Source: Escherichia coli (lineage in GTDB: Bacteria > Pseudomonadota > Gammaproteobacteria > Enterobacterales > Enterobacteriaceae). From it: a DNA stretch of 64,000 bases. This document shows, piece by piece, positions 26,077 through 47,229 of the stretch (position 1 is the stretch's first letter; every line of letters begins with the position of its first letter). Both the position numbers and the translations under genes were made by a program. The notes beneath the pieces were generated by a model. It saw only the letters and a program-made list of their open reading frames with translations, searched no databases and was not told the DNA's origin. The stretch is from the NCBI RefSeq assembly GCF_001677475.2, contig NZ_CP015229.1. The stretch is one strand, 5' to 3'.

Positions 26077-28520
26077 ATGAAAACGAAAATCCCTGATGCG
26101 GTATTGGCTGCTGAGGTGAGTCGCCGTGGTTTGGTAAAAACGACAGCGATCGGCGGCCTGGCAATGGCCAGCAGCGCATTAACATTACCTTTTAGTCGGA
26201 TTGCGCACGCTGTCGATAGCGCCATTCCAACAAAATCAGACGAAAAGGTTATCTGGAGCGCCTGTACAGTTAACTGTGGTAGTCGCTGCCCGCTACGTAT
26301 GCACGTCGTGGACGGTGAAATCAAATATGTCGAAACGGACAATACCGGCGATGACAATTACGACGGCCTGCACCAGGTTCGCGCCTGTCTGCGTGGGCGT
26401 TCCATGCGTCGCCGTGTCTACAATCCGGACCGGCTGAAATATCCGATGAAACGAGTCGGGGCGCGCGGTGAAGGCAAATTCGAGCGCATTAGCTGGGAAG
26501 AAGCCTACGACATCATCGCGACCAATATGCAGCGCCTGATCAAAGAGTACGGCAACGAGTCTATCTATCTGAACTATGGCACCGGTACGCTGGGCGGCAC
26601 CATGACCCGCTCCTGGCCGCCGGGAAATACCCTGGTCGCGCGCCTGATGAACTGCTGCGGCGGCTATCTGAACCATTACGGCGACTACTCCTCCGCGCAA
26701 ATTGCGGAAGGTCTGAACTATACCTACGGCGGCTGGGCAGATGGTAACAGCCCGTCGGATATCGAAAACAGTAAGCTGGTAGTGCTGTTTGGTAATAACC
26801 CAGGCGAAACGCGAATGAGTGGCGGCGGGGTGACTTATTACCTTGAACAGGCTCGCCAGAAATCTAATGCTCGCATGATCATCATCGATCCGCGCTATAC
26901 CGACACCGGTGCCGGGCGCGAAGATGAGTGGATCCCTATTCGTCCGGGAACAGATGCCGCACTGGTTAACGGTCTGGCGTACGTCATGATCACCGAAAAC
27001 CTGGTGGATCAGGCATTCCTCGATAAATATTGCGTTGGCTACGACGAGAAAACACTGCCAGCCAGTGCGCCGAAAAATGGTCACTATAAAGCTTATATTC
27101 TGGGTGAAGGGCCAGATGGCGTAGCTAAAACGCCGGAATGGGCCTCGCAAATCACCGGTGTTCCGGCAGACAAAATCATCAAACTGGCTCGTGAAATCGG
27201 CAGTACCAAACCGGCGTTTATCAGCCAGGGATGGGGCCCGCAGCGTCACGCTAACGGTGAAATCGCAACCCGTGCTATCTCGATGCTGGCGATTCTGACC
27301 GGTAACGTTGGTATTAATGGAGGGAACAGCGGCGCGCGTGAAGGTTCATACAGCTTACCGTTTGTCCGTATGCCGACCCTCGAAAACCCGATCCAGACCA
27401 GCATTTCTATGTTTATGTGGACCGATGCCATTGAACGTGGCCCGGAAATGACGGCGCTGCGTGATGGTGTGCGCGGGAAAGATAAGCTGGATGTGCCGAT
27501 CAAAATGATCTGGAACTATGCCGGTAACTGCCTGATTAACCAGCATTCTGAAATCAACCGTACCCATGAAATCCTTCAGGATGATAAGAAGTGCGAGCTG
27601 ATTGTGGTTATCGACTGCCACATGACCTCATCGGCGAAATATGCTGACATCCTGCTGCCTGACTGCACCGCTTCCGAACAGATGGACTTTGCACTGGATG
27701 CATCCTGCGGGAATATGTCTTACGTGATTTTCAACGATCAGGTGATTAAACCGCGCTTTGAATGTAAGACCATCTATGAAATGACCAGCGAACTGGCAAA
27801 ACGTCTTGGCGTTGAGCAACAGTTTACTGAAGGCCGTACACAGGAAGAGTGGATGCGGCATCTGTATGCCCAGTCGCGGGAAGCGATTCCTGAACTGCCA
27901 ACGTTTGAAGAGTTCCGCAAGCAGGGGATCTTTAAAAAGCGCGCCCACAAGGGCATCACGTTGCTTATAAAGCCTTCCGTGAAGATCCGCAGGCAAATCC
28001 ACTGACCACGCCATCGGGTAAAATTGAGATTTATTCGCAGGCGCTGGCTGACATTGCCGCTACCTGGGAATTGCCAGAAGGCGACGTGATCGATCCACTG
28101 CCGATCTACACGCCGGGCTTTGAAAGTTATCAGGATCCGCTGAACAAACAGTATCCGCTGCAGCTTACGGGTTTCCACTATAAATCTCGCGTTCACTCAA
28201 CTTACGGCAACGTTGATGTGCTGAAAGCGGCTTGCCGTCAGGAGATGTGGATCAACCCGCTTGATGCGCAAAAACGCGGTATCAACAACGGCGATAAAGT
28301 CAGGATCTTTAACGATCGTGGTGAGGTTCATATTGAGGCGAAAGTGACGCCACGAATGATGCCGGGCGTGGTCGCACTGGGTGAAGGTGCCTGGTATGAC
28401 CCAGATGCAAAACGTGTCGATAAGGGCGGTTGTATCAACGTACTGACCACTCAACGTCCGTCTCCTCTCGCTAAGGGGAATCCGTCACATACAAACCTTG
28501 TTCAGGTTGAAAAGGTGTAA
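26077..28520 (+). pseudogene. dmsA: dmsA, anaerobic DMSO reductase catalytic subunit, with an interrupted reading frame (true pseudogene or sequencing indel)
   Basis: ORF 26077..28005 (642 aa) has the Tat signal (SRRGLVKTTAIGG) and the molybdopterin-oxidoreductase N-terminus, then ends ...FKKRAHKGITLLIKPSVKIRRQIH*. The +1 frame is open from about 27936 to 28520 and encodes the expected C-terminal part (...PQGHHVAYKAFREDPQANPLTTPSGKIEIYSQ...NLVQVEKV), ending 10 bp before dmsB. This implies a 1-nt indel near 27940..27950. Confidence 0.6.
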
Positions 28521-32347: not shown

Positions 32348-33778
32348 ATGGCTGGGAATGTTCAGGAAAAACAGCTGCGATGGTACAACATTGCGCTGAT
32401 GTCTTTTATCACTGTCTGGGGTTTTGGCAACGTTGTTAATAACTACGCCAACCAGGGGCTGGTGGTTGTTTTTTCATGGGTGTTTATCTTTGCGCTCTAT
32501 TTCACACCTTATGCGCTAATTGTTGGCCAGTTAGGCTCGACCTTCAAAGATGGGAAGGGCGGGGTCAGTACCTGGATTAAACACACGATGGGACCCGGAC
32601 TGGCTTACCTCGCCGCGTGGACCTACTGGGTAGTGCATATTCCCTATCTGGCACAAAAACCCCAGGCAATACTGATTGCGCTCGGTTGGGCGATGAAAGG
32701 CGACGGTTCGCTAATCAAAGAATATTCAGTCGTAGCGTTACAGGGGTTAACGCTGGTGCTGTTTATCTTCTTTATGTGGGTTGCTTCACGCGGTATGAAA
32801 TCGCTGAAAATCGTCGGTTCTGTGGCAGGGATTGCGATGTTTGTTATGTCGCTCCTGTATGTGGCGATGGCGGTAACCGCGCCTGCGATTACTGAAGTGC
32901 ATATTGCGACCACAAACATTACCTGGGAAACGTTCATTCCTCATATCGACTTTACCTACATTACCACTATTTCAATGCTGGTTTTCGCGGTTGGCGGAGC
33001 AGAGAAGATTTCTCCTTACGTTAATCAAACGCGCAACCCAGGAAAAGAATTTCCAAAAGGGATGTTATGCCTGGCGGTGATGGTTGCGGTTTGTGCCATT
33101 CTGGGCTCACTGGCGATGGGGATGATGTTTGACTCGCGTAATATCCCGGATGACTTAATGACTAACGGTCAGTATTACGCCTTTCAGAAGCTGGGCGAGT
33201 ATTACAACATGGGTAATACTTTAATGGTGATTTATGCCATTGCGAATACCCTGGGACAAGTAGCTGCGCTGGTATTCTCGATTGATGCACCGCTTAAAGT
33301 GTTATTAGGCGATGCCGACAGCAAATATATTCCAGCAAGTTTATGTCGTACCAACGCTTCTGGTACGCCCGTTAATGGCTATTTTCTGACCCTGGTGCTG
33401 GTGGCGATCCTGATAATGCTACCGACTCTCGGCATTGGTGATATGAACAATCTCTATAAATGGCTGTTGAATCTTAACTCGGTAGTGATGCCGCTGCGTT
33501 ATTTGTGGGTATTTGTTGCGTTTATTGCTGTCGTTCGCCTGGCGCAGAAATATAAACCAGAGTATGTCTTTATTCGTAATAAGCCGATGGCAATGACCGT
33601 CGGGATATGGTGTTTTGCCTTTACCGCTTTTGCATGCCTGACAGGAATTTTCCCTAAAATGGAAGCCTTCATTGCAGAGTGGACATTCCAATTGGCACTG
33701 AACATTACTACGCCATTTGTCCTCGTTGGACTGGGGCTGATATTCCCGCTGCTTGCACGTAAAACGAATACAAAATAG
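32348..33778 (+). CDS. ycaM: APC-family amino-acid/polyamine transporter YcaM
   Basis: ORF 32156..33778. Start taken at MAGNVQEKQLRWYNIALMSF (476 aa), preceded by aagga. Polytopic membrane protein. Confidence 0.88.
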   Translation: MAGNVQEKQLRWYNIALMSFITVWGFGNVVNNYANQGLVVVFSWVFIFALYFTPYALIVGQLGSTFKDGKGGVSTWIKHTMGPGLAYLAAWTYWVVHIPYLAQKPQAILIALGWAMKGDGSLIKEYSVVALQGLTLVLFIFFMWVASRGMKSLKIVGSVAGIAMFVMSLLYVAMAVTAPAITEVHIATTNITWETFIPHIDFTYITTISMLVFAVGGAEKISPYVNQTRNPGKEFPKGMLCLAVMVAVCAILGSLAMGMMFDSRNIPDDLMTNGQYYAFQKLGEYYNMGNTLMVIYAIANTLGQVAALVFSIDAPLKVLLGDADSKYIPASLCRTNASGTPVNGYFLTLVLVAILIMLPTLGIGDMNNLYKWLLNLNSVVMPLRYLWVFVAFIAVVRLAQKYKPEYVFIRNKPMAMTVGIWCFAFTAFACLTGIFPKMEAFIAEWTFQLALNITTPFVLVGLGLIFPLLARKTNTK

Positions 33779-33785
33779 TCATCAT

Positions 33786-33803
33786 GCCCCGGTTCGCCGG
33801 GGC
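33786..33803 (+). terminator. Hairpin just downstream of ycaM (weak terminator candidate)
   Basis: gccccgg-ttcg-ccggggc perfect inverted repeat 8 bp after the ycaM stop; no clear U-tract. Confidence 0.35.
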
Positions 33804-34875
33804 TGTGATATCAAATAGACTAAAATTAGATCAGGCCTGATAAGGCAAAAGTTAAGTTTTTCTTAAGAGATGAAAGAAAATCAACGCTACCGTGATAATA
33901 CGAATTTTAGTTATCGGAGACCATTATTTTTAGATATGGTGATAGTTTTAATTATTGGTTATTTTGCAAGTTATTATTTTGGGCTCTGGAGTAAACTCTT
34001 GCGCATAGTAATAACATGATTTTTACGGCTAAATTTTCAACAAAGATTGGTAATGTAAACTCGTATTTTTTGATTTGCATCAATGAATTCGCACGTTGCT
34101 AATTATGGTTAAATTTGCTGAGAATGATTGCGGTTATTGTTTGGATATGCAGATGGTATATTGATTCACTGGCGTAATATTCTGTAAAAATTATATTTTA
34201 TAGTGTTTTAATCTGGCAAAAATCATCTCCCGACAGAATCTTCTCATGCCTGGTGTAGTTCACAGTCTTTTGTTTTAAAAATAAAATAGTGCTCTAATGT
34301 TGCATCTATTGTTTTATCGAGCGTGTGTTCCTGAAAATATTTATCTGTTAGGTTGATGGACAAATTACAGCCTGGGCAGTGAAATTTTCACGATCACTTT
34401 CTGACTAAATCTTACTTTAAGGTTACTGATTAATATATTTGGGCTAAGAGAGTCGTATTACACATGTCTCAAAAAAGATAAATAAACAGAAAGGATTACT
34501 CACAATAGATACTAATAACACTTTTGGATAGTTATAGAGTAGAAGCCACGACTCAGCAGGATGTAGTAGCTGTGTTGTTATAAGTTAATTTTTTCATGGC
34601 TAAATTATTTCGTTGAAAAATTAACGAAAGGCGGTAGCGTGGGTGAAAGATACAAAATGAGTGTTACATATAACAATATTACCTTGGTTAAAATAGAATG
34701 AATGATAATCACCTGTGGAAATTAAGAAAAAAGTAATCTTCTCATCATGATATATTTTTTATATGGAATAGTGAAATTAATAAAATCATAAAGAGGAGAG
34801 CAACATCGTCTAATATACAGAACGTTATACGATATGATATGAAGCTATTAATAACATTTTAGTCAGAATACCAGT

Positions 34876-37224
34876 ATGTATAGCATTACCGAAAAATTAA
34901 ACTCAAGATTTAACACTGCGGTTATATTAGCTGTTACTGTCTATATTGTCTTGTCATTTATTACCGCAATTGATTTCCATAAAAAAATAGCAGAAAACTC
35001 TGCACAGATTAACCTTATACTCATCAATAACAATTTGAATAATTTTTTTTCTAAAGTTGAAAAAGAGGCTGATGCATTAAAAGATGCAATCTATCTGTTA
35101 CATGATGAAGATGAAATAAAGCGAGCAGTCCTTCATCGCATGAAAAAAATAGACGCGGTTAATTTAGTAGGGATAATGCTCAATAATGGAAAATATCTTA
35201 GCTTTATTCGAACTGAGAATGGGGAGGTAAAATTTCTGGGGCAATCAGAACCCGGTAAACCTTTTATTGGTGACGATGGTGATATCAGCGATAACTACTT
35301 TAATCCGGAATCACGCCCATGGAATAAATTACCGAGGGGGACTTATTCAAAATGGTCACCATGGTATAATTGTTATGGTATTGCCGGAAAAAAATGTTTT
35401 TCGTTTTCACTACGACCATCCGAAGAAGAAAAAAATTCATTTGCTTTGAAGTTAATACATCTGGATGTTGATGAAAAATATTTCAGTAATTTTTTAAATA
35501 AACTGGGTGGTGATTCTGATATTTTATTCATGGAACAAAACAAAAGGATTATGGTGGGTAATGAAAAATCAATGTTACATCTTATTGTCCGTGATTTATC
35601 GGGAAGTTATAACATAAGCAATAATAGTGGCAACTATACAGACAATGTTATCTCACTCCCCTGGCTTCCTGATGTCAGATTCCATTATTTCCACTATCAA
35701 AAATCAGAAGATACAAACATCAATAAATATTTTACACTGATGTTTTTATGTGGCTTGGTTTGTTTCTGTTTATTATGGTATATCGTTGAAAAAATAACAA
35801 GAAAAATCAAAGGTGAATCCAGCAAACTGATAGAACATCTGAAAAAATTAGCTAATTCAGTATATCGCAACGACACAATTGATATTGTGCAAAATGACAG
35901 TGGTGAGATTGTTGAACTCAAAAAGATCATTAATAATATCAGCGATAAATACAAGGAGCGTATGGACCGATTACTTAATCTTGTGTCCTATGAACAAGGA
36001 AGTTGCTTTTATATTAATAAGGCTATTATTGAAACTAATAATAAAACCTATTTGGCAATTGGTATGCTTTGCATCTATGGATTAGAGTTTGTTGAAGCGG
36101 TATATGGAAATCAGAAATTTCATGAGATTTTTAATGATATAAAATCTAAGATATCACAAAAATATTCAAAATATTGTGATATCGTAAAAATCTCAACTGA
36201 AACATACTTGTTGCTATGTCACACTGATTGCGAAGAGTTCATCGAAAAATTATCGGTTTTAAACTTTCCTGAACATATATTTTGCATAAGAAATATATAT
36301 ATCCACAAGATTGCCATTTGCGAAAATTTTTCAGGGGAAAATGTATCGATTTATGAAAGGAAACTGAAACTGGCATTAACAGCTATGCGGGAAAATAAAG
36401 AATCTGAATTTATTTTTTATGATGACATCAAAGTCCATGAACTTGATCAAAAGGTCTGGGTGGCAGGAAATATAAAAAAAGCGATTGCGAGTAATGAGCT
36501 TTATTTAGTATATCAACCGATTGTTGATATGGATAATAATAGGGTTGTAGGCGCAGAGGCGTTATGTCGCTGGTTGTCCTGCGAAAATGGGGTAATACCG
36601 CCATCAATTTTTGTACCTGTTGCTGAAGAAATAGGATTAATTAAAGAACTGGGTGATTTTGTTCTCGAAACAGCTATTAGCGAATTTGGGGTGTTTAGTT
36701 GTGAATATGAGGTTGCTAACGATTTTCTCCTGCATATCAATGTTTCTCCCTGGCAATTAAATGAATTTGACTTCCACACTCGTGTTCTTACTTTAATTAA
36801 TGCATTTGGTGTAAATGTTGAACAAATCTGCCTGGAGATCACCGAATCAGCAGTAAAAGATATAAATGATAGCTTTTACAATAATATAAATATTTTAAAA
36901 GAAAATGGTATCAAGATTTCCCTTGATGATTTCGGAAGTGGATTAGCTGACCTGAAAAAACTTTATAAAGTAAGACCTGATAGCATTAAAATTGATTCAG
37001 AGTTTACCTCTGGTATTTTCGATGAAACTAACAAGGTTGTATATTTTATATCCAATCTTGCTCGTGAAGAAAATATGCCGGTAATAGCTGAAGGTGTTGA
37101 AACTGAAAGTCAGGCTAGAGAGTTGCAAAAATTAGGATTTTCTCATGTTCAGGGATACTTATACCAGAAACCGTTACCGTTTTCAGAATGGCATATAGAC
37201 AACAAACCGAAAAAAAGAAAATAA
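34876..37224 (+). CDS. Membrane-bound c-di-GMP phosphodiesterase: TM, periplasmic sensor domain, TM, cytoplasmic linker region, EAL domain
   Basis: 782 aa. Hydrophobic helices near residues 15-35 and ~285-305. EAL-domain motifs all present: QPIVD, EALCRW, NVSP, LEITES, DDFGSG, KIDSEF, AEGVETE, QGYLY. No GG(D/E)EF signature upstream of the EAL domain. Confidence 0.85.
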   Translation: MYSITEKLNSRFNTAVILAVTVYIVLSFITAIDFHKKIAENSAQINLILINNNLNNFFSKVEKEADALKDAIYLLHDEDEIKRAVLHRMKKIDAVNLVGIMLNNGKYLSFIRTENGEVKFLGQSEPGKPFIGDDGDISDNYFNPESRPWNKLPRGTYSKWSPWYNCYGIAGKKCFSFSLRPSEEEKNSFALKLIHLDVDEKYFSNFLNKLGGDSDILFMEQNKRIMVGNEKSMLHLIVRDLSGSYNISNNSGNYTDNVISLPWLPDVRFHYFHYQKSEDTNINKYFTLMFLCGLVCFCLLWYIVEKITRKIKGESSKLIEHLKKLANSVYRNDTIDIVQNDSGEIVELKKIINNISDKYKERMDRLLNLVSYEQGSCFYINKAIIETNNKTYLAIGMLCIYGLEFVEAVYGNQKFHEIFNDIKSKISQKYSKYCDIVKISTETYLLLCHTDCEEFIEKLSVLNFPEHIFCIRNIYIHKIAICENFSGENVSIYERKLKLALTAMRENKESEFIFYDDIKVHELDQKVWVAGNIKKAIASNELYLVYQPIVDMDNNRVVGAEALCRWLSCENGVIPPSIFVPVAEEIGLIKELGDFVLETAISEFGVFSCEYEVANDFLLHINVSPWQLNEFDFHTRVLTLINAFGVNVEQICLEITESAVKDINDSFYNNINILKENGIKISLDDFGSGLADLKKLYKVRPDSIKIDSEFTSGIFDETNKVVYFISNLAREENMPVIAEGVETESQARELQKLGFSHVQGYLYQKPLPFSEWHIDNKPKKRK

Positions 37225-37228
37225 AGCA

Positions 37229-38569
37229 ATGTTCAAATATAAAAAAAAGGCGGCAGTGATCTGTTTTTTGTATTTTTTGTGCGTCGCTGTAGTAACTTGT
37301 TATTTGTACACCATTCATGTTAAAGGCCGTATAAATTCGGTGAAGGTATCTATTGTAGATAGTGGGCTTGCAATAGCTAATGTTTCTGAGTATCGCCGCT
37401 CAGTATCTAATAATATATTTTATGAACTTGAGGTTTCGCCAGAAGAGTTGTTAAAAAAAATACGCAATAGCTTTGCTGGCTATGAAAACCCTGGATATTT
37501 GTATGATCTCGGTCCTTATATGATTAGCGATGGTAAATGTATCAAAGTCACAACGAAAGGAGATAATTTTTGTGACGACATAGTTTCCTCTATTAGGGTA
37601 ATTAATGAATTTGAAAGAGGCATTATTAGCTTAAAAAATAAGTGCTATGTTTATTATGCTCATCCCATTGCAAAACGTACAAGTTTGATATCAGTGGTAG
37701 ATCCTGAACGTTATTTATCTTTGATAAGAAATCAATCAGGGGAACGAGAAGATATCTATGTATCATTTTATGATATTAATGATAATGAAAAGAAAATCGC
37801 AGGTGATGATTTTTTGATAAATGATGCAGTATTTGAGATGTCAGCTATCACTCTGTCGTATTCTTATCTTCCAGAAATGATGTTTATTGTTGCCTATAAA
37901 AAAAGTAAATATCTATATATATGTGCGTTTTTCGTTTTTGCATCGGCAATATCTGCAGTCATAATGTATGTTTATTATGTTAAATTATTGCGTGATATTA
38001 TAAATAAGGGTAGATTGGAAAAAGAATCTATATTGTCGAATCATCAATATGATTTACGTGGAGAAAATCTATTCTTTAATACGGAAGAGATTAATGCAAT
38101 TCGAGAGATATATGACTTTGGCACTTGTGATGCATTAACCAGGGCTTCTGGTCGCCGGAGTTTTGATAAAGAAATCAAGATACTGAGAAAAAATTTTGGC
38201 TACCTGTGTCTATTTGATGTGGATAAATTTAAAACCATTAATGATAAGTTTGGTCATTTATTTGGTGATGAAGTACTCATCAAACTTGTTAATATCATTA
38301 AAGAAGAGTTACCCCGTCGTGAAGGGGAAATATACCGGTTTGGCGGTGATGAGTTTGCTATTATTTATTATGAGAAAGATAAAAATAAGCTATCAAGAAT
38401 TTTGCACAGAGTTGTTCATTTCGCCATTGGTGGGTTAAATTGTAGTTGCAGTATAGGTGTTGCCAGCACAGATGAGTGCATGAATAACATTGAACGGTTG
38501 AAATTGCTGGCAGATGAACGGTTATATAAAAGTAAGCAAAATGGCCGAGCACAGATAACGTGGTGTTGA
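37229..38569 (+). CDS. Membrane-bound diguanylate cyclase: TM, periplasmic sensor domain, TM, GGDEF domain
   Basis: 446 aa, starting 5 bp after the upstream stop. Two hydrophobic helices flank a ~200-aa periplasmic segment. GGDEF-domain motifs: DALT..RR, LFDVDKFKTINDKFGH, GDEVL, RFGGDEFAIIY, ADERLYKSKQNGR. No RxxD inhibitory site immediately upstream of GGDEF. Confidence 0.85.
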   Translation: MFKYKKKAAVICFLYFLCVAVVTCYLYTIHVKGRINSVKVSIVDSGLAIANVSEYRRSVSNNIFYELEVSPEELLKKIRNSFAGYENPGYLYDLGPYMISDGKCIKVTTKGDNFCDDIVSSIRVINEFERGIISLKNKCYVYYAHPIAKRTSLISVVDPERYLSLIRNQSGEREDIYVSFYDINDNEKKIAGDDFLINDAVFEMSAITLSYSYLPEMMFIVAYKKSKYLYICAFFVFASAISAVIMYVYYVKLLRDIINKGRLEKESILSNHQYDLRGENLFFNTEEINAIREIYDFGTCDALTRASGRRSFDKEIKILRKNFGYLCLFDVDKFKTINDKFGHLFGDEVLIKLVNIIKEELPRREGEIYRFGGDEFAIIYYEKDKNKLSRILHRVVHFAIGGLNCSCSIGVASTDECMNNIERLKLLADERLYKSKQNGRAQITWC

Positions 38570-38653
38570 TATTTTAATTTGCATGGCATTGGTCATCGAT
38601 GTTTACAAAAATCACACAGTTCAAGTTATATTATTAATGAATCGTTAAGTGCA

Positions 38654-40768
38654 ATGCTCATAAAAAATAAAGTAATATTAAACAAAATCCTTTTGGTTGT
38701 TGCTATACTGCTATGTTTTGTTTTTTTATCAATTGTTGAACAGCCCCTTGGATTTTATCAACAAACATTATTTTCAATTATTATTTGTATCGCTGCTATC
38801 TTCCTTAATTTTCTCAAAGGAAGGATAATTACTCTGATTCTAATGGGTGTTGGAATACTCATATCATCCCGATATCTATGGTGGCGTTACTCTTCTTCAG
38901 TAATCCTGGATGAATTTCCAGACTGTTTATTTTCAGTCACGCTATTAGTTGCTGAGACGTATGCATGGTTTGTTTTATTACTTGGTTACTTTCAGGTTTG
39001 CTTCCCGCTGAACCGAGAAAGTATACCCTTACCAGAGAATAAAGAAGAATGGCCCGTTGTTGATATATTAATCCCCACATATAACGAACCCTTTACAGTC
39101 GTTAAGAATACAGTTTATGGTGCGTTGGCCTTAGACTGGCCAACGGATAAATTAAATATCTGGCTCCTTGATGATGGCGCCAGGGACGAGTTCAGGAAAT
39201 TCGCGAACGAGTTAGGTATTTACTATGTCGCAAGAGAAACACATGAACATGCTAAGGCCGGAAATATAAATAATGCGCTTAAAATAGCTAATGGCGAATT
39301 TGTTGCTATTTTCGATTGCGATCATATACCCTCGGTTTCTTTTTTAAAGAAAACGATGGGCTGGTTTATCGCCGATAAAAAATTATCGATGTTGCAAACA
39401 CCACATCATTTTTTTTCCCCCGACCCTTTTGAGCGAAATTTGGGGCAGTTTCGGCAAAAGCCAAATGAAGGACACCTTTTTTATGGGTTAATCCAGAATG
39501 GTACGGATACATGGAATGCTTCATTTTTTTGTGGTTCATGTGCAATCATCCGTAGATCTGCTCTGGATGAGGTTGGAGGCATTGCAGTCGAAACAGTAAC
39601 AGAAGATGCGCATACGTCGTTACGCTTGCATCGTGCAGGTTATAGCTCTGCGTATCTTCGCTATCCTCTGGCTGCCGGGCTAGCCACCGAAACATTGTCT
39701 GCTCATATTGGACAACGGATTCGGTGGGCTCGAGGCATGATTCAAATCTTGCGTATTGACAATCCATTATTGGGCAAGGGGCTGACATTATCACAGCGCC
39801 TTTGCTATCTCAGCAGCATGATGCATTTTTTATCAGGTGTGCCACGCCTGATTTTCTTGTTCGCACCGTTATGTCCTATTTTCTTTTCGGTCAATCTGAT
39901 CGATGCATCAGTTGCAGATATTATGTCTTATGTTTTACCTTATCTATTTGTTATTATTTTAACTAATTCAAGAGTACAAGGTAAATACAGACATTCATTC
40001 TGGAATGAGATTTATGAAATGGTTCTGGCCTGGTATATTACGCTACCAACGCTTGTAGCTTTACTTGCGCCAGCAAAAGGTCGTTTTAACGTTACGGCCA
40101 AAGGGGGACTGATAAAAAATAAGTTTGTTGACTGGCGAATTTCCTATCCCTATCTTATTTTTGCTATTTTAAATGTAATCGGGCTGATAATAGGTGTTAT
40201 TAATGTTTATAGTTTGCAAGGGCATATTGCCATCTTGAATTTGTTTTGTTTAATCTGGTTGTTTTATAACGCAATTATTATTGGCGCAACTTTGGCTGTT
40301 TCTATTGAACAAAAGCAGGTGCGTTTTTCTCCCCGTATTGATGTTTCTTTCAAGGGCGTTATACAACTGGATGATGGACGGCGCTATCCTTGTTCTGTTC
40401 TTGATTTTTCCGAAGGAGGATTAGGTGTAATCCTTGATAATATCTCCGACGTAAAAGATATGCTTAAAGCACAGCAATTGTCTCTTTATCTGGATGATAG
40501 CAACGGGAAATGTGATATTCCGGTAGAAATAGTTCATGCTTACAATAATAAAATTGGTCTGAAGATTATGCCAATGAGTTATGAACAAAGTGTTAATTAT
40601 GTAAGAGCAACGTTTTCTCGTGATTCATTATGGCAAGAGTGGAATAATAAAATTAGACGGGACAATATTCTAAAGAGTTTTTTTGAAATATGTTTCATCT
40701 CTCTGAAAGGTTATTGCAATATGGTTTTTTATATTCTGCGGACACTGAAAAGCAGTTCCAAAAGTTAG
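38654..40768 (+). CDS. BcsA-like family-2 processive beta-glycosyltransferase with C-terminal PilZ domain (c-di-GMP-gated synthase)
   Basis: ORF 38579..40768 begins with TTG; first in-frame ATG is at 38654 (704 aa). Catalytic motifs: DDGARDE, FDCDH, QTPHHFFSPDPFERN, FFCGSCA, TEDAHTSLRLH, QRIRWARG. PilZ motifs RFSPRID and DFSEGGLG. Confidence 0.85.
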   Translation: MLIKNKVILNKILLVVAILLCFVFLSIVEQPLGFYQQTLFSIIICIAAIFLNFLKGRIITLILMGVGILISSRYLWWRYSSSVILDEFPDCLFSVTLLVAETYAWFVLLLGYFQVCFPLNRESIPLPENKEEWPVVDILIPTYNEPFTVVKNTVYGALALDWPTDKLNIWLLDDGARDEFRKFANELGIYYVARETHEHAKAGNINNALKIANGEFVAIFDCDHIPSVSFLKKTMGWFIADKKLSMLQTPHHFFSPDPFERNLGQFRQKPNEGHLFYGLIQNGTDTWNASFFCGSCAIIRRSALDEVGGIAVETVTEDAHTSLRLHRAGYSSAYLRYPLAAGLATETLSAHIGQRIRWARGMIQILRIDNPLLGKGLTLSQRLCYLSSMMHFLSGVPRLIFLFAPLCPIFFSVNLIDASVADIMSYVLPYLFVIILTNSRVQGKYRHSFWNEIYEMVLAWYITLPTLVALLAPAKGRFNVTAKGGLIKNKFVDWRISYPYLIFAILNVIGLIIGVINVYSLQGHIAILNLFCLIWLFYNAIIIGATLAVSIEQKQVRFSPRIDVSFKGVIQLDDGRRYPCSVLDFSEGGLGVILDNISDVKDMLKAQQLSLYLDDSNGKCDIPVEIVHAYNNKIGLKIMPMSYEQSVNYVRATFSRDSLWQEWNNKIRRDNILKSFFEICFISLKGYCNMVFYILRTLKSSSKS

Positions 40769-40833
40769 TTCTAATTTCTGACTGCTAATTAAATATATTG
40801 TTTGTGTTTATTATGGTTGTTGAATTTTTTAAA

Positions 40834-43134
40834 ATGGAAAGAAAATTTTTGAGATTAAGTGCTGCGATAATTGGCTTGGGGTTATTATGTTTTTACCAGG
40901 CAAATACAGCATCGGCTACAGATACAGTAACCAGTAAGTCTTCCTCTGGAGAAGTATTACCATCTATCCAGAAGACAAATATCTCTGCTTATGAGAAAGA
41001 GTCGTCTCGCCATTTTAAACTCCCATTTACACAAATCGCACCAGCTCCAGGAAACATAGTCCTGAATGGCGTTAACCCACAGGGGCAAATTGAGTTTGGT
41101 ATGCGTAGCGATGAAATAGTATCAGAAGCAAAACTAAAACTTGAATACACTACATCACCGTCGCTGATCCCTGTCCAGTCACAGCTTAAGGTCTATCTTA
41201 ATGACGAGTTGATGGGGGTATTGCCGATTACCAAAGAACAACTGGGGAAGAAAACGCTGGCGGAAATAACTCTTAACCCATTGTATTTTTCTGATTTTAA
41301 TCGCTTGCGCCTCGAATTAATTAGTCACTACCAGAGCGCCTGTGAAAACCCGACCAGCAGCAATTTGTGGCTTGATATTGGACGTACCAGTGAACTTGAA
41401 CTGGTATTTCAGAGACTTAATCTGAAAAATGATCTTTCATATTTTCCTGTACCGTTTTTTGACCCGCGAGATAACCGCACTAATACATTGCCGATGGTTT
41501 TTGCAGGTACTCCTGAGACTGGTTTGCAGCAGGCATCAGCTATTGTCGCTTCGTGGTTTGGTGCGCAATCTGGCTGGCGTGGTCACCGATTTCCGGTTTT
41601 CTATAACCAGTTACCGGAAAGTAATGCAGTGGTCTTTGCCACTAACAATAGACGCCCGGACTTTCTGCGCGAGCATCCGTTGGTGAATGCGCCTGTTATT
41701 AAAATGATCAGTCATCCACAAAATCCTTTTATCAAATTGCTGGTACTTTTGGGCCGCGATGACAAAGATTTATTACAGGCGGCAAAAGGCCTTGCACAGG
41801 GAAATATACTTTTTCGCGGCGATAGTGTGATCGTAAATGAAGTGACGCCGTTACTGCCGCGTAAACCTTATGATGCGCCAAACTGGGTACGCACTGACCG
41901 TCCTGTAACTTTCGCAGAGCTTAAAAATTATGAAGGGCAGTTACAGGCAAGTGGCCTGGAGTCTGCGGCAATTAATGTTTCATTTAATTTGCCACCTGAT
42001 CTTTTTCTATTGCGTAATCGTGGGGTTGATATGAAGATTAACTATCGCTATACCACGCCAACGATAGGTGGTTCACGCATGGATGTCAGCCTTAATAACC
42101 AGTACCTTGAATCTTTCCGGCTAAGTCCGCAATCTGCTACCGATAGATTGTTGTTACGTTTACCGTTATTGCAAGAATTGTTGGATGGTAATAATGGAAT
42201 TACCATTCCTGCGCTGACGTTGGGGGCGCTTAATCAATTGCGATTTAATTTTGAGTACATTAATACAATGCCGCGTTCTGATGCTGATAGCTGTATTATT
42301 TCCAGGCCTCTAAAAAATCATGCGGTTATTGCAGATGATTCCACTATCGATTTTTCAAAGTACCATCACTTTATCGCAATGCCAGATTTACGCGCTTTTG
42401 CCAGCTCAGGCTTTCCATTTAGCCGCATGGCCGATCTATCAGAAACGGTTGTGGTTATGCCTGAAAATCCTGGTACAACGCAAGTTGAAACATTATTAAA
42501 TACCCTTGGACTGATTGGTGCTCAAACTGGATTTCCGGCAATTAATCTGACAATTACTGATGATATAGGTTCTGTCCAGGGTAAGGATTCAGATATTCTG
42601 CTTATAGGAACACTTCCGCAAGAATTTGCAGATAAACAGCAAATTAATCTGCTCATTGAGGCAACAACGAGTTGGGTAAAAAGCCCAATGCGGAACACTG
42701 ATTACGCAAAAATTATGGCAGATAAAAACGATCAAAAACCTGAAATACAAACAACTATAAATTCCCCATTGCCAATGGCGGCGATAGTTGGTTTTCAGTC
42801 CCCATATCATGCCCAACGTAGCGTAATTGCTTTAATGTCCGAGGGATCACGCGGCGATACGCTACTCAACAATGCGTTAATTAATAGTACAAAACGCGGC
42901 AATATTTTTGGTTCAGTCGCGGTTATTCGCGAATCTGGCGTCAATAGTTTACAGGTTGGAGATACTTATTACGTTGGGCATCTCCCCTGGATTGAACGAG
43001 TGCAATATGTGTTAGCCAGACACCCCATTCTACTGGCAGTCCTGGCAACTCTCAGTGTGGTGCTATTGGCGTGGGTAGTATGGCGTCTGTTACGTAACAT
43101 TAGTCGCCGTCGTCTGAACCCTCATCAACAGTAA
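40834..43134 (+). CDS. BcsB-like periplasmic synthase subunit with C-terminal membrane anchor
   Basis: ORF 40798..43134 begins with TTG; start taken at MERKFLRLSAAIIGLGLLCFYQANTASA (signal-peptide-like). C-terminal single TM helix ILLAVLATLSVVLLAWVVWRLL followed by basic residues, as in BcsB. Confidence 0.8.
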   Translation: MERKFLRLSAAIIGLGLLCFYQANTASATDTVTSKSSSGEVLPSIQKTNISAYEKESSRHFKLPFTQIAPAPGNIVLNGVNPQGQIEFGMRSDEIVSEAKLKLEYTTSPSLIPVQSQLKVYLNDELMGVLPITKEQLGKKTLAEITLNPLYFSDFNRLRLELISHYQSACENPTSSNLWLDIGRTSELELVFQRLNLKNDLSYFPVPFFDPRDNRTNTLPMVFAGTPETGLQQASAIVASWFGAQSGWRGHRFPVFYNQLPESNAVVFATNNRRPDFLREHPLVNAPVIKMISHPQNPFIKLLVLLGRDDKDLLQAAKGLAQGNILFRGDSVIVNEVTPLLPRKPYDAPNWVRTDRPVTFAELKNYEGQLQASGLESAAINVSFNLPPDLFLLRNRGVDMKINYRYTTPTIGGSRMDVSLNNQYLESFRLSPQSATDRLLLRLPLLQELLDGNNGITIPALTLGALNQLRFNFEYINTMPRSDADSCIISRPLKNHAVIADDSTIDFSKYHHFIAMPDLRAFASSGFPFSRMADLSETVVVMPENPGTTQVETLLNTLGLIGAQTGFPAINLTITDDIGSVQGKDSDILLIGTLPQEFADKQQINLLIEATTSWVKSPMRNTDYAKIMADKNDQKPEIQTTINSPLPMAAIVGFQSPYHAQRSVIALMSEGSRGDTLLNNALINSTKRGNIFGSVAVIRESGVNSLQVGDTYYVGHLPWIERVQYVLARHPILLAVLATLSVVLLAWVVWRLLRNISRRRLNPHQQ

Positions 43135-43246
43135 TTCATCATCATTTCTATTTTGCGGCTCCATTCTGTCCTGACTTTATACAGGCAGGGAGCTGCGCCC
43201 GTTCTGTTTTTAATAAAAAGTGAGTTAACACCTGATTGAGGCAGGC

Positions 43247-46200
43247 ATGTACAAATTCACCCTAAATTTACTCACAATATCCCTTGGTTTGGCGGTAATG
43301 TCGATGGCGAAAGCCACACCAACTGTACACAAGCTGTTAATGGCGCAGATTCGGTTAGGCGAAGACATTCATCGTGAAGATCTGGTCGAACAGTCGCTTT
43401 ATCGTCTTGAATTGGCGGAACCTGATAATCCAGATGTCGTTGCGGCGCGTTTTCGCTATCTGCTGCGTAAGGGGGATATTGAAGGTGCGCAAAAACAACT
43501 TGCCAGACTTTCCCTGTTCGCTCCTGATTCAAAAATATATAAAGCATCGCGCACGGCCATGCGACTTTCTTCGCCTGAGGGGCGTCAGGCACTGCAAATG
43601 GCACGCTTACAAGCTATCTCCGGGCGACATAAAGAGGCTATCGACAGTTACGACAAGCTATTTAACGGGGCACCGCCAGATATCGAAATGGCGCTGGAAT
43701 ACTGGGGGGCAATGACGCAAATTTCCTCCCGTCGCAACGAAGCGATTCGTCAGTTGAAAATACTTAATATTGATAATCCTGACTCTGGTGCCATATTTGG
43801 GGCGCTGGGGCAGGCGTATTCCCAGAATGGCGATCGCGCTAATGCGGTGGCGAATCTGGAAAAAGCCCTCGCACTGGATCCGCACAGCAGCAACAACGAC
43901 AAATGGAACAGTCTGCTGAAGGTGAATCGCTACTGGCTGGCGATCCAGCAGGGCGATGCTGCGCTGAAAGCCAATAATCCTGACCGCGCAGAGCGTCTGT
44001 TCCAGCAGGCGCGCAATGTCGATAACGCCGACAGCTATGCGGTGCTGGGGCTGGGCGATGTGGCGATGGCGCGCAAAGATTACCCCGCCGCCGAACGTTA
44101 TTATCAGCAGACGCTGCGTATGGACAGCGGCAACACCAACGCCGTGCGCGGGCTGGCGAATCTTTATCGCCAGCAGTCGCCGGAAAAAGCCGAAGCGTTT
44201 ATTGCCTCGCTCTCTGCCAGCCAGCGGCGCAGCGTTGATGACATCGAACGCAGCCTGCAAAACACGCGTTTATCACAGCAGGCAGAGGCACTGGAAAATC
44301 AGGGTAAATGGGCGCAGGCGGCAGCACTTCAGCGCCAGCGACTGGCGCTCGATCCCGGCAGTGTGTGGATTACTTACCGGCTTTCGCAGGATCTCTGGCA
44401 GGCCGGACAACGCAGCCAGGCCGATACGTTAATGCGCCATCTGGCGCAGCAGAAGCCGAACGACCCGGAGCAGGTTTACGCTTACGGGCTGTATCTCTCT
44501 GGTCATGACCAGGACAGAGCGGCGCTGGCGCATATCAACAGCCTGCCGCGCGCGCAATGGAACAGCAATATTCAGGAGCTGGTTAATCGACTGCAAAGCG
44601 ATCAGGTGCTGGAAACCGCTAATCGCCTGCGAGAAAGCGGCAAAGAAGCTGAAGCGGAAGCGATGCTGCGCCAACAACCACCTTCCACGCGTATTGATCT
44701 CACGCTGGCTGACTGGGCGCAACAACGACGTGATTATACCGCCGCCCGCGCTGCATATCAGAATGTCCTGATGCGGGAGCCAACTAACGCCGATGCCATT
44801 CTTGGTCTGACGGAAGTGGATATTGCTGCCGGTGACAAAGCGGCAGCACGTAGCCAGCTGGCGAAACTGCCTGCCACCGATAACGCGTCGCTGAACACTC
44901 AGCGGCGCGTGGCGCTGGCACAGGCGCAGCTTGGCGATACCGCAGCGGCGCAGCAGACGTTTAATAAGTTGATCCCGCAGGCAAAATCTCAGCCGCCGTC
45001 GATGGAAAGCGCGATGGTGCTGCGCGACGGTGCGAAGTTTGAAGCGCAGGCGGGCGATCCAAAGCAGGCGCTGGAAACCTACAAAGACGCCATGGTCGCA
45101 TCCGGTGTGACTACGACGCGTCCGCAGGATAACGACACCTTTACCCGACTGACCCGTAACGATGAGAAAGATGACTGGCTGAAGCGCGGTGTGCGCAGCG
45201 ACGCGGCAGATCTCTATCGTCAGCAGGATCTTAACGTCACCCTTGAGCACGACTACTGGGGATCGAGTGGCACCGGTGGTTACTCCGACCTGAAAGCGCA
45301 CACTACCATGTTGCAGGTGGATGCTCCGTATTCTGACGGGAGGATGTTCTTTCGCAGTGATTTCGTCAATATGAACGTCGGCAGTTTCTCCACTAATGCC
45401 GATGGCAAATGGGATGACAACTGGGGCACCTGTACATTACAGGACTGTAGTGGCAACCGCAGCCAGTCGGACTCCGGTGCCAGCGTGGCGGTCGGCTGGC
45501 GAAATGACGTCTGGAGCTGGGATATCGGTACCACGCCGATGGGCTTCAACGTGGTGGATGTGGTCGGCGGCATCAGTTACAGCGATGATATCGGGCCGCT
45601 GGGTTACACCGTTAACGCCCACCGTCGGCCCATCTCCAGTTCTTTGCTGGCCTTTGGTGGGCAAAAAGACTCTCCGGGCAATACCGGGAAAAAATGGGGT
45701 GGCGTGCGTGCCGACGGCGTGGGGCTAAGCCTGAGCTACGATAAAGGTGAAGCAAACGGCGTCTGGGCATCGCTTAGCGGTGACCAGTTAACCGGTAAAA
45801 ATGTCGAAGATAACTGGCGCGTGCGCTGGATGACGGGCTATTACTATAAGGTCATTAACCAGAACAATCGCCGCGTCACAATCGGCCTGAACAACATGAT
45901 CTGGCATTACGACAAAGATCTGAGTGGCTACTCACTCGGTCAGGGCGGTTACTACAGTCCGCAGGAATACCTGTCGTTTGCCATACCGGTGATGTGGCGG
46001 GAGCGCACGGAAAACTGGTCGTGGGAGCTGGGTGCATCTGGCTCGTGGTCGCATTCGCGCACCAAAACCATGCCGCGTTATCCGCTGATGAACCTGATCC
46101 CGACGGACTGGAAAGAGGATGCCGCCAGCCAGACCAACGACGGCGGCAGCAGTCAGGGCTTTGGCTACACGGCGCGGGCGTTACTTGAGCGTCGCGTCAC

Positions 46201-46354
46201 GTCCAACTGGTTTGTCGGCACGGCGATTGATATCCAGCAGGCGAAAGATTATGCGCCAAGCCATTTCCTGCTCTACGTGCGGTATTCCGCCGCCGGATGG
46301 CAGGGCGACATGGATTTACCGCCGCAGCCGCTGATACCTTACGCCGACTGGTAA
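43247..46354 (+). CDS. BcsC-like outer-membrane export component (signal peptide, TPR repeats, C-terminal beta-barrel)
   Basis: 1035 aa. Signal peptide MYKFTLNLLTISLGLAVMSMAKA; SD gaggcagg upstream. Many TPR-like repeats (e.g. GALGQAYSQNGDRANAVANLEKALALDP); C-terminal Gly/aromatic-rich region ending in W (...LIPYADW). GC content rises sharply after the first ~0.6 kb. Confidence 0.85.
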   Translation: MYKFTLNLLTISLGLAVMSMAKATPTVHKLLMAQIRLGEDIHREDLVEQSLYRLELAEPDNPDVVAARFRYLLRKGDIEGAQKQLARLSLFAPDSKIYKASRTAMRLSSPEGRQALQMARLQAISGRHKEAIDSYDKLFNGAPPDIEMALEYWGAMTQISSRRNEAIRQLKILNIDNPDSGAIFGALGQAYSQNGDRANAVANLEKALALDPHSSNNDKWNSLLKVNRYWLAIQQGDAALKANNPDRAERLFQQARNVDNADSYAVLGLGDVAMARKDYPAAERYYQQTLRMDSGNTNAVRGLANLYRQQSPEKAEAFIASLSASQRRSVDDIERSLQNTRLSQQAEALENQGKWAQAAALQRQRLALDPGSVWITYRLSQDLWQAGQRSQADTLMRHLAQQKPNDPEQVYAYGLYLSGHDQDRAALAHINSLPRAQWNSNIQELVNRLQSDQVLETANRLRESGKEAEAEAMLRQQPPSTRIDLTLADWAQQRRDYTAARAAYQNVLMREPTNADAILGLTEVDIAAGDKAAARSQLAKLPATDNASLNTQRRVALAQAQLGDTAAAQQTFNKLIPQAKSQPPSMESAMVLRDGAKFEAQAGDPKQALETYKDAMVASGVTTTRPQDNDTFTRLTRNDEKDDWLKRGVRSDAADLYRQQDLNVTLEHDYWGSSGTGGYSDLKAHTTMLQVDAPYSDGRMFFRSDFVNMNVGSFSTNADGKWDDNWGTCTLQDCSGNRSQSDSGASVAVGWRNDVWSWDIGTTPMGFNVVDVVGGISYSDDIGPLGYTVNAHRRPISSSLLAFGGQKDSPGNTGKKWGGVRADGVGLSLSYDKGEANGVWASLSGDQLTGKNVEDNWRVRWMTGYYYKVINQNNRRVTIGLNNMIWHYDKDLSGYSLGQGGYYSPQEYLSFAIPVMWRERTENWSWELGASGSWSHSRTKTMPRYPLMNLIPTDWKEDAASQTNDGGSSQGFGYTARALLERRVTSNWFVGTAIDIQQAKDYAPSHFLLYVRYSAAGWQGDMDLPPQPLIPYADW

Positions 46355-46395
46355 TGAGGTAGAATCAGAAGGTTAAAACTCGGAAATTAAATCCA

Positions 46396-46438
46396 GTAAA
46401 TCAGCGTCGAGCATGTTCTTAACGCTGATTTACTTTTT
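46396..46438 (+). terminator. Intrinsic terminator after the BcsC-like gene (may also serve convergent pflA)
   Basis: gtaaatcagcgt...acgctgatttac inverted repeat followed by ttttt, 42 bp after the stop at 46354. Confidence 0.65.
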
Positions 46439-46488
46439 ACTACTAAAGGAAGGGGTGGCAGGTCGGAATTCAGCCTGCACATGATGTT

Positions 46489-47229
46489 TTAGAACATCAC
46501 TTTATGACCATATTGCTCAAGAATCCCTTTCACTCGCTCCATGGTTTCTTTTTTCGGTGGTTTCACACCGTCGAGTTTGTACTCTTCGCCCATCGCCACC
46601 CACTTATGTTTGCCTAACTCATGGTAGGGGAGGAGCTCGATTTTTTCGACGTTACCCATATCGCGAGTAAATTCACCGAGGCGATGAGCTGAATCGTCAT
46701 CGTCAGACCAGCCAGGTACTACGACATAACGTATCCAGACTTTCACATTTTTGTTCGCCAGATATTTAGCAAACTCGAGTGTACGATGGTTGGAAACGCC
46801 TACCAGATTCTGGTGGATTTCGTCGTTCATCTGTTTGAGATCGAGCATTACCAGGTCGGTCACTTCCAGAAGTTCATCAATTACTGGATCGTAACGACGA
46901 ACAAAACCGTTAGTGTCCAGACAGGTATGAATGCCTTCTTTTTTGCAGGCGCGGAACCAGTCGCGAACGAACTCGGCTTGCAGGATTGCTTCACCACCGG
47001 ATGCGGTAACGCCGCCGCCGGAAGCGTTCATAAAGTGGCGATAGGTCACCACTTCCTTCATTAAATCTTCAACGGTAACTTCTTTACCGCCATGCGTATC
47101 CCAGGTGTCGCGGTTATGACAATACAGGCAGCGCATCAGGCAGCCCTGGAAAAAGGTGATAAAGCGAATACCCGGGCCGTCTACGGTTCCACAGGATTCA
47201 AAGGAGTGAATGCGACCAATAACTGACAT
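46489..47229 (-). CDS. pflA: Pyruvate formate-lyase activating enzyme (radical SAM)
   Basis: ORF 46489..47256. Start taken at [23 protein letters not shown] (246 aa). Radical-SAM CxxxCxxC motif ([12 protein letters not shown]). Confidence 0.95.

Follow-up and report, generated by a model that had tools for sequence, protein, structure and literature searches.

An Escherichia coli cellulose synthase cluster with a bcsZ vestige and a hybrid bcsC: a probable accessory operon reduced from bcsABZC

Introduction

Escherichia coli and Salmonella produce phosphoethanolamine (pEtN)-cellulose with a type II Bcs system, in which the core genes are accompanied by an accessory set (bcsRQABZC plus bcsEFG). 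A 64,000-nt segment of an E. coli chromosome, which we refer to as the window and whose numbering is used throughout, contains a low-GC island between ycaM and pflA with homologues of bcsA, bcsB and bcsC at 38654-46354. An earlier examination of the letters alone (the sequence-only reading) described these three genes as a minimal module without equivalents of bcsZ, bcsQ/R or bcsE/F/G, and suggested that it either depends on accessory factors of the host or makes an unmodified polymer with different export requirements. The question raised by this locus is how such a gene set arose and how it could work. Our analysis indicates that the three genes are probably part of a self-contained five-gene accessory cellulose operon, reduced from an enterobacterial bcsABZC cluster and equipped with a hybrid, converted BcsC, and that the cellulose of this operon is expected to be unmodified. 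The gene set and its likely meaning are already known from a preprint that the Römling laboratory posted in 2025 (Hosseinpourlamardi et al., bioRxiv, 10.1101/2025.05.09.653004), and the window holds a further, diverged example. What goes beyond that description, namely a reductive origin and a hybrid BcsC that evolves in concert with the native copy, should be of use to specialists.

Results

Five genes and no functional accessory gene

All genes of the cluster lie on the plus strand. The bcsA gene (38654-40768, 704 amino acids) encodes, by homology, a cellulose synthase gated by bis-(3′-5′)-cyclic dimeric guanosine monophosphate (c-di-GMP), which matches NCBIfam PRK11498 and the Pfam GT2 and PilZ families, with PilZ at residues 580-671. 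It is followed by bcsB (40834-43134, 766 amino acids), encoding a periplasmic co-polymerase with a C-terminal membrane anchor that matches NCBIfam and the full-length Pfam domain BcsB (8e-214), and by bcsC (43247-46354, 1035 amino acids), the product of which combines a solenoid of Pfam tetratricopeptide repeats (TPRs) with a BCSC_C barrel at residues 680-1014 (1.4e-119). The three homologues named in the sequence-only reading are real and intact: all score above the curated NCBIfam equivalog cut-offs (1015 against 992 bits for BcsA, 1188.6 against 922 for BcsB and 1892 against 858 for BcsC), and Pfam agrees. Mechanically called open reading frames (ORFs) start further upstream for bcsA (a TTG at 38579) and bcsB (40798).

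Directly upstream are two genes of c-di-GMP turnover. A CHASE9-EAL phosphodiesterase of PdeI/YliE-like architecture (34876-37224, 782 amino acids; Pfam CHASE9 at residues 35-150, 7e-42, and EAL at 532-766, 8.5e-65) has the EAL, DDFGSG and EGVE motifs, and a GAPES2-GGDEF diguanylate cyclase of DgcI/YliF-like architecture (37229-38569, 446 amino acids; Pfam GAPES2 at 26-232, 5.5e-41, and GGDEF at 300-441, 1.8e-24) retains an intact GGDEF motif (RFGGDEF). Successive genes are separated by 4, 84, 65 and 112 bp, the last of these, between the bcsB stop codon at 43134 and the bcsC ATG at 43247, being exactly the distance given earlier. On the simplest reading the five genes form a single operon. The bcsABC core of the proposed module stands, but its limits were drawn too narrowly, as the two c-di-GMP genes (34876-38569) belong to it as well.

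The absence of accessory genes was examined by tblastn of the whole window in six frames, at very permissive settings, with native E. coli BcsQ, BcsR, BcsE, BcsF, BcsG and BcsZ from strain CT29 as queries. No accessory gene was detected in the island or elsewhere in the window (best E = 0.078); the sole positional match consists of 29 amino acids of the BcsZ C-terminus, inside the 112-bp gap between bcsB and bcsC. The search that had been proposed as a check on the sequence-only reading thus bears it out, with a vestige of BcsZ but no functional accessory gene. Overlooked short or non-ATG-initiated ORFs could have altered this picture, and inspection of leader, nested and antisense ORFs revealed no accessory gene among them. 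All remaining island ORFs of at least 80 amino acids overlap the five genes, either nested within them or on the opposite strand, and match no NCBIfam family; the nested or antisense ORFs inside bcsC, of up to 290 amino acids, were rejected as extra genes for lack of a family match. In the 1.1-kb leader upstream of the phosphodiesterase gene no ORF exceeds 49 amino acids and none has a family match. The 49-amino-acid ORF is interrupted by stop codons in the alleles of E. coli MS21-1 and E. marmotae, one of 39 amino acids is matched there by weak fragments only, and those of 43 and 35 amino acids have no match in these two alleles. The small leader ORFs, including the longest with its hydrophobic stretch, were considered as BcsF/BcsR-like peptides and set aside, as they have no family match and are not kept across diverged alleles.

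This content departs from three types of Bcs system. The type II combination of bcsE/F/G and bcsR/Q alongside the core is absent from the whole window by tblastn, and the N-terminal BcsG-recruiting domain of type II BcsA is missing. The bcsD gene of type I systems (with bcsH/O/P) was not seen, there being no ORFs beyond the five genes, although no query was aimed at BcsD. In type III systems bcsK, encoding a TPR protein without a barrel, replaces bcsC, usually with bcsZ; here the third gene of the core encodes a BCSC_C barrel and bcsZ is only a vestige.

A vestige of bcsZ between bcsB and bcsC

In the native locus the end of bcsZ runs into the start of bcsC, and the 112-bp spacer of the island (43135-43246, plus strand) preserves a trace of this arrangement. 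Its last ~30-80 nt are homologous to the bcsZ 3′ end, and 43215-43759 aligns by blastn with the native bcsZ end and bcsC start at 71% identity. The strict local match, 43215-43245, corresponds to nt 1056-1087 of the 1107 nt of bcsZ, which is the syntenic position, and scores 32 compared with 14.2 ± 2.2 in 2000 shuffles, none of which scored as high. Similarity at the peptide level begins at ~43180, and one frame of the gap still reads ...QGAAPVLFLIKSELTPD*, the counterpart of the native BcsZ C-terminus. The strict match is also found in the alleles of the E. coli strains N3, MS21-1 and E69. The vestige is not a functional gene, and the earlier observation stands in that respect. Its presence marks the cluster as a reduced bcsABZC from which bcsZ was deleted, and not a primitively minimal one.

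A reductive origin also bears on the question of host factors. The hydrolytic activity of E. coli BcsZ is needed for efficient secretion, and unrelated cellulases can supply it in trans (PMC11379886), which makes host BcsZ the most plausible borrowed factor. The suggestion that the module uses host accessory factors is therefore plausible for BcsZ, with its vestige and its ability to act in trans, and only there.

The island BcsC is a hybrid

The bcsC gene is composed of two parts. The 5′ part (43247-43774, plus strand), encoding the signal peptide and residues 1-176 with TPR#1-4 and the BcsB-docking region, is island-specific: it has 69-75% nucleotide identity to native bcsC, and its product is diverged but collinear with native residues 1-176. 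Native residues 177-298 are then deleted in frame, a loss of 122 residues or about three TPRs that is identical in four alleles (the window, N3, MS21-1 and E69). The 3′ part (43775-46354, plus strand), encoding the remaining TPRs and the BCSC_C barrel, is native-like: 43799-46354 (2556 nt) has 95.8% identity to native bcsC by blastn, and the export part of the protein (TPR ~#8-19 and the beta-barrel; native residues 287-1157) is 96.6% identical to the native protein. Given this likeness, the idea that the polymer has different export requirements finds no support in the predicted protein. In E. coli, TPR#1-4 corresponds to BcsC residues 21-179, and it is through TPR#1 that BcsC attaches to the terminal BcsB subunit (PMC11379886). 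Of the seven named contact residues in TPR#1 the island protein keeps five (Q30L and I57A differ), and the BcsB side of the contact shows the conservative changes F163Y, I164F and V209L relative to native BcsB. On the evidence of this hybrid, the synthase-specific part of BcsC lies in TPR#1-4, and TPR#5-7 may be dispensable.

Two other accounts of this structure were rejected. An assembly artefact is contradicted by the same in-frame junction in four independent complete genomes, and an identity of 45% for the BcsC N-terminus in the first tblastn search came from a mis-registered TPR alignment; in the collinear alignment residues 1-176 are aligned and followed by a clean gap of 122 residues.

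Informative sites in quartets of bcsC copies gave opposite groupings for the two parts. In the 5′ part the island copies group together against native copies at 131:0:1 sites. In the 3′ part, the window copy pairs with native CT29 bcsC against the island and native copies of E69 (81:6:3) and, in a second quartet, against the MS21-1 island copy and native E. albertii bcsC (160:10:4). In E69, the genome in which island and native copies were compared with each other, the island bcsC is 98.2% identical to the native copy and just 94.8% identical to the island copy of the window. The window and E69 islands share ~99% identity over 33.8-44.3 kb and then 88-95%, the drop being confined to bcsC. The 3′ part of island bcsC thus tracks native alleles rather than other island copies, a pattern that indicates repeated overwriting by native bcsC through gene conversion. 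Among native bcsC genes across 5426 genomes none exceeds 95.8% identity to the window copy, so the latter is a mosaic and not a single recent copy. Four E. marmotae draft contigs all stop 0.58-0.77 kb into the island copy of bcsC, which is what a repeat in common with native bcsC would be expected to cause in short-read assembly. Conversion between these paralogues breaks such assemblies inside bcsC and can mislead BcsC phylogenies.

The 3′ part of the MS21-1 island bcsC is closest to native E. albertii bcsC (93.4%, compared with ~88% for native E. coli copies), which hints that this allele may formerly have resided in an E. albertii-like lineage.

The synthase core and its expected product

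BcsA has the hallmarks of a processive GT2 enzyme, with LLDDG, DCDH, TED, QRIRW and FFCGS motifs that align with those of native BcsA, and the RFSPR and DFSEGG motifs of its PilZ domain predict c-di-GMP binding. Its identity to native BcsA is 41.7% over the full native length and ~52% in the GT-PilZ core, while native residues ~4-135 and the last ~32 have no counterpart. In two structures published in 2024, the first 94 residues of E. coli BcsA form an N-terminal domain that holds three BcsG pEtN-transferases in place at the synthase (PMC11379886, PMC11470070). As this BcsG-recruiting domain is missing from the island protein, pEtN modification of its product seems unlikely and an unmodified product is to be expected even in a host with BcsG, so that the earlier suggestion of an unmodified polymer gains support from the BcsA alignment. 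BcsB, with N-terminal signal-like and C-terminal hydrophobic segments, is 65-66% identical to native BcsB over its full length. The nearest BcsA proteins outside Escherichia, among 5.8 billion protein clusters, are ordinary enterobacterial ones at 52-56% identity, and an identifiable distant donor for the low-GC part was rejected for this reason.

Taken together, these features would allow the following course of events. Periplasmic signals perceived via CHASE9 and GAPES2 would adjust local c-di-GMP through the cyclase/phosphodiesterase pair, and c-di-GMP bound to the PilZ domain would open and activate BcsA. From uridine diphosphate (UDP)-glucose, BcsA-BcsB would build a beta-1,4-glucan and translocate it through the inner membrane. 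BcsC would be docked on BcsB by its island-specific TPR#1 and would export the chain through its native-like solenoid and barrel. With no recruitment of BcsG by BcsA, the cellulose would remain unmodified and carry no pEtN, and periplasmic clean-up would likely be left to host BcsZ acting in trans.

Distribution and selection

Among 5426 complete E. coli genomes the island is present in nine, always between ycaM and pflA. Two of these carriers (N3, NZ_CP031609.1, and GF43) have 95% DNA identity to the window and seven (MS21-1 and others) 84.5%; the allele of E. coli E69 (CP089930.1) is ~99% identical over most of the island, and E. marmotae carries another allele. Beyond these two species, no close relatives of the island BcsA were found in the 5.8 billion protein clusters. 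Comparison of the five genes between the window and MS21-1, with both parts of bcsC included, gave synonymous divergence (dS) of 0.5-0.75 and ratios of nonsynonymous to synonymous divergence (dN/dS) of 0.06-0.15, with 0.09 for the phosphodiesterase gene and 0.13 for the cyclase gene; a bcsA value relative to N3 was discarded owing to an indel that offset the frames. Such values amount to strong purifying selection on each of the five genes, maintained through a long divergence.

In contigs from E. marmotae and metagenomes the island lies directly after ycaD, with ycaM absent, and the phosphodiesterase is either reduced in length (709 or 694 amino acids) or divided in two (462+231 amino acids), so some carriers may have lost c-di-GMP degradation.

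Comparison with known systems

According to the preprint (10.1101/2025.05.09.653004), E. coli has accessory BcsA2, BcsA3 and BcsA4 clusters, of which BcsA3 shares ~41% identity with the core synthase BcsA1, is without the ~150-residue N-terminus and a ~30-residue C-terminus, and is encoded in a chromosomal, Escherichia-restricted bcsABC cluster flanked by YliE/YliF homologues. We assign the island to this BcsA3 type, the reference protein of which is HDP8224287.1, by the description given there. The likeness extends to the short BcsA (41.7% to BcsA1), the presence of bcsABC only, the chromosomal location, the CHASE9-EAL and GAPES2-GGDEF genes directly upstream and the restriction to Escherichia, whereas the sub-lineage of the window allele differs by ~10% at the protein level from the commonest cluster (P0001) and from that of E. 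marmotae (P0002). An unmodified cellulose made independently of BcsG is a prediction already made in the preprint. Its account of the BcsA3 type, as far as available, contains neither the bcsZ vestige nor the TPR deletion, the native-like converted 3′ part of bcsC or the replacement of ycaN-ycaK described below, and has BcsC clustering concordantly with BcsA.

The type II system of E. coli and Salmonella has a homologous core (BcsA 52%, BcsB 66% and BcsC residues 287-1157 96.6% identical) with PilZ-based c-di-GMP gating and the same BcsB and BcsC architecture, in which most BcsB/TPR#1 contact residues are kept. The island differs from it in being without bcsR, Q, Z, E, F and G and the BcsG-recruiting N-terminal domain of BcsA, in a BcsC shorter by 122 residues, and in its dedicated cyclase and phosphodiesterase. 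By description, the minimal BcsA-BcsB synthase of Cereibacter (Rhodobacter) sphaeroides is likewise built on a short-form BcsA from which the N-terminal domain of the enterobacterial protein is missing, and these two proteins alone make unmodified cellulose (as cited in PMC11379886 and 10.1101/2025.05.09.653004); beyond these two, the island encodes an exporter, BcsC, and its own pair of c-di-GMP enzymes.

Similar in gene order is the BcsA2 cluster on plasmid A of E. coli S56 (pS56, WP_074014783.1), the short-form BcsA of which is 72% identical to that of the window and 45% identical to full-length BcsA1, compared with 41.7% for the window protein. Both clusters place a bcsZ remnant and bcsC after bcsA and bcsB, and both have EAL and GGDEF genes in the vicinity. 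The S56 cluster is, however, plasmid-borne, with a native-like bcsZ remnant and a full-length bcsC that is of native type along its whole extent (98.8% over the first 513 nt). Between bcsB and the bcsZ 3′ remnant, S56 plasmid A (7705-18627) has acquired a group II intron (ltrA) and the transposase gene of an IS200, and upstream of bcsA its EAL and GGDEF genes are in fragments. This cluster seems to have captured its 3′ end from the chromosomal bcs locus.

Discussion

Alternative explanations

The interpretation that we favour, a self-contained operon with an unmodified product, has to be weighed against three others. The island synthase might join the BcsRQ, BcsEF and BcsG of its host and make ordinary pEtN-cellulose, in which case it would be merely an extra, differently regulated catalytic core. 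Such a partnership would find its components in place, since island-bearing genomes also hold native bcsC (two places per record, with both confirmed in E69); the export part of the island BcsC is native-like, and the BcsA GT-PilZ core, where native BcsR and BcsQ bind (PMC11470070), retains ~52% identity. The island BcsA is nevertheless without the N-terminal domain for the BcsG trimer (PMC11379886) and without the C-terminal tail, the interfaces may be lost at ~52% identity for BcsA and ~66% for BcsB, and the preprint likewise predicts independence from BcsG (10.1101/2025.05.09.653004); we regard this partnership as unlikely. Even less probable, in our view, is that the cluster arrived by horizontal transfer and is now a silent or decaying relic devoid of function, the lack of accessory genes and the deletion of bcsZ being stages of its decay. 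The rarity of the island (9/5426 genomes), its very low GC content (31-35%), typical of often-silenced xenogeneic DNA, the loss of bcsZ, the degraded pS56 relative and the shortened or split phosphodiesterase genes of some E. marmotae contigs would all suit a relic. Five frames that are intact across alleles 5-15% apart in DNA, the retention of all catalytic and c-di-GMP-binding motifs, and dN/dS of 0.06-0.15 at dS of 0.5-0.75 argue against decay. That the product is a glucan other than cellulose, for instance a mixed-linkage beta-glucan, would explain the absence of cellulose-specific accessory genes; BcsA has just ~52% identity to native, and linkage is not readable from sequence. This we consider highly improbable, given that BcsA, BcsB and BcsC all exceed curated cellulose equivalog cut-offs, that the nearest outside relatives are ordinary enterobacterial BcsA proteins at 52-56%, and that the cluster descends from a bcsABZC with a vestige of the glycoside hydrolase family 8 (GH8) cellulase gene.

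Several points weigh against a self-contained, functional operon with a hybrid BcsC. For native E. coli, secretion has been described as impossible without BcsRQ (PMC11470070), and a cluster that has no such genes may be inactive or may borrow BcsRQ from the host. The experiments of the preprint cover only the unrelated type-4 cluster (10.1101/2025.05.09.653004). In the pS56 cluster a diverged BcsB goes together with a BcsC of native type throughout, which weakens the idea that TPR#1-4 must co-evolve with its own BcsB, a counter-example tempered by the degraded look of that cluster, with its intron, insertion sequence and fragmented phosphodiesterase and cyclase genes. The bcsZ vestige is short, with a strict match of 31 nt, and the native bcsC of the window strain lies outside the window, so that conversion in this strain is deduced from E69 and from the mosaic pattern.

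We tentatively propose, without favouring it over its negation, that the island and the native locus share an interchangeable export module. Conversion would homogenise the distal TPRs and the barrel, TPR#1-4 would remain private to each synthase, about three fewer TPRs would be tolerated, and two celluloses would be secreted. If this holds, pEtN-cellulose from the native locus and unmodified cellulose from the island would be secreted under separate signal control, the latter through its own cyclase/phosphodiesterase pair, and the hybrid would be a natural domain swap defining the parts of BcsC that give synthase specificity.

Setting and extent of the island

The gene order of the window is dmsABC, ycaC, ycaD, ycaM, the low-GC island, pflA, pflB, focA and ycaO. 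In typical E. coli genomes, homology to the window ends at the ycaM stop codon (33777/33778) and restarts at the pflA stop codon (46489), and the interval between ycaM and pflA is occupied by ycaN and ycaK. By this comparison the 12.7-kb island (33779-46488) is best described as a replacement of ycaN-ycaK and not a simple insertion, as the sequence-only reading had called it. At its left edge, directly after the ycaM stop codon at 33.8 kb, GC content drops to 27-36%, compared with ~50% before it, and then rises stepwise across the island (~0.34-0.44 in bcsA, ~0.42-0.46 in bcsB and ~0.59 over the greater part of bcsC). The AT-rich, non-coding leader (33779-34875, 27-36% GC, no strand assigned) is of a kind typical of often-silenced DNA. 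Within the leader, the region 34000-34600 differs more between alleles than any other part of the island, with 64-69% identity to MS21-1 and a fall to 87% relative to E69, which is 99% identical elsewhere; this stretch may have a variable regulatory role. A count of promoter-like sites showed no enrichment, with 33 counted and 33.8 expected from shuffles, and an Rfam scan of 33500-46700 (E ≤ 0.1), which includes the leader, found no RNA family. Downstream of bcsC, folding detected a terminator-like hairpin with a T-run (46395-46440, plus strand; minimum free energy -19.8 kcal/mol, z = -5.0, 0/200 shuffles as stable), which a terminator scan had passed over owing to its long loop. The right edge of the island, at 46488, adjoins the pflA stop codon.

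The last ~280 nt of ycaM (33500-33777) and ~510 nt of pflA (46489-47000) have just 87-89% identity to typical E. coli (TUM9757), and the wider flanks are 98-99% identical to those of other island-bearing strains. Since the ends of ycaM and pflA are diverged from typical E. coli and the flanks are near-identical among carriers, the sequence suggests that the island spread among Escherichia lineages by homologous recombination that carried along diverged flanks. Elsewhere in the window, dmsA is split into a 642-amino-acid ORF (26077-28005) and a C-terminal ORF of 149 amino acids in another frame (28071-28520), which represents either a frameshifted pseudogene or a sequencing error.

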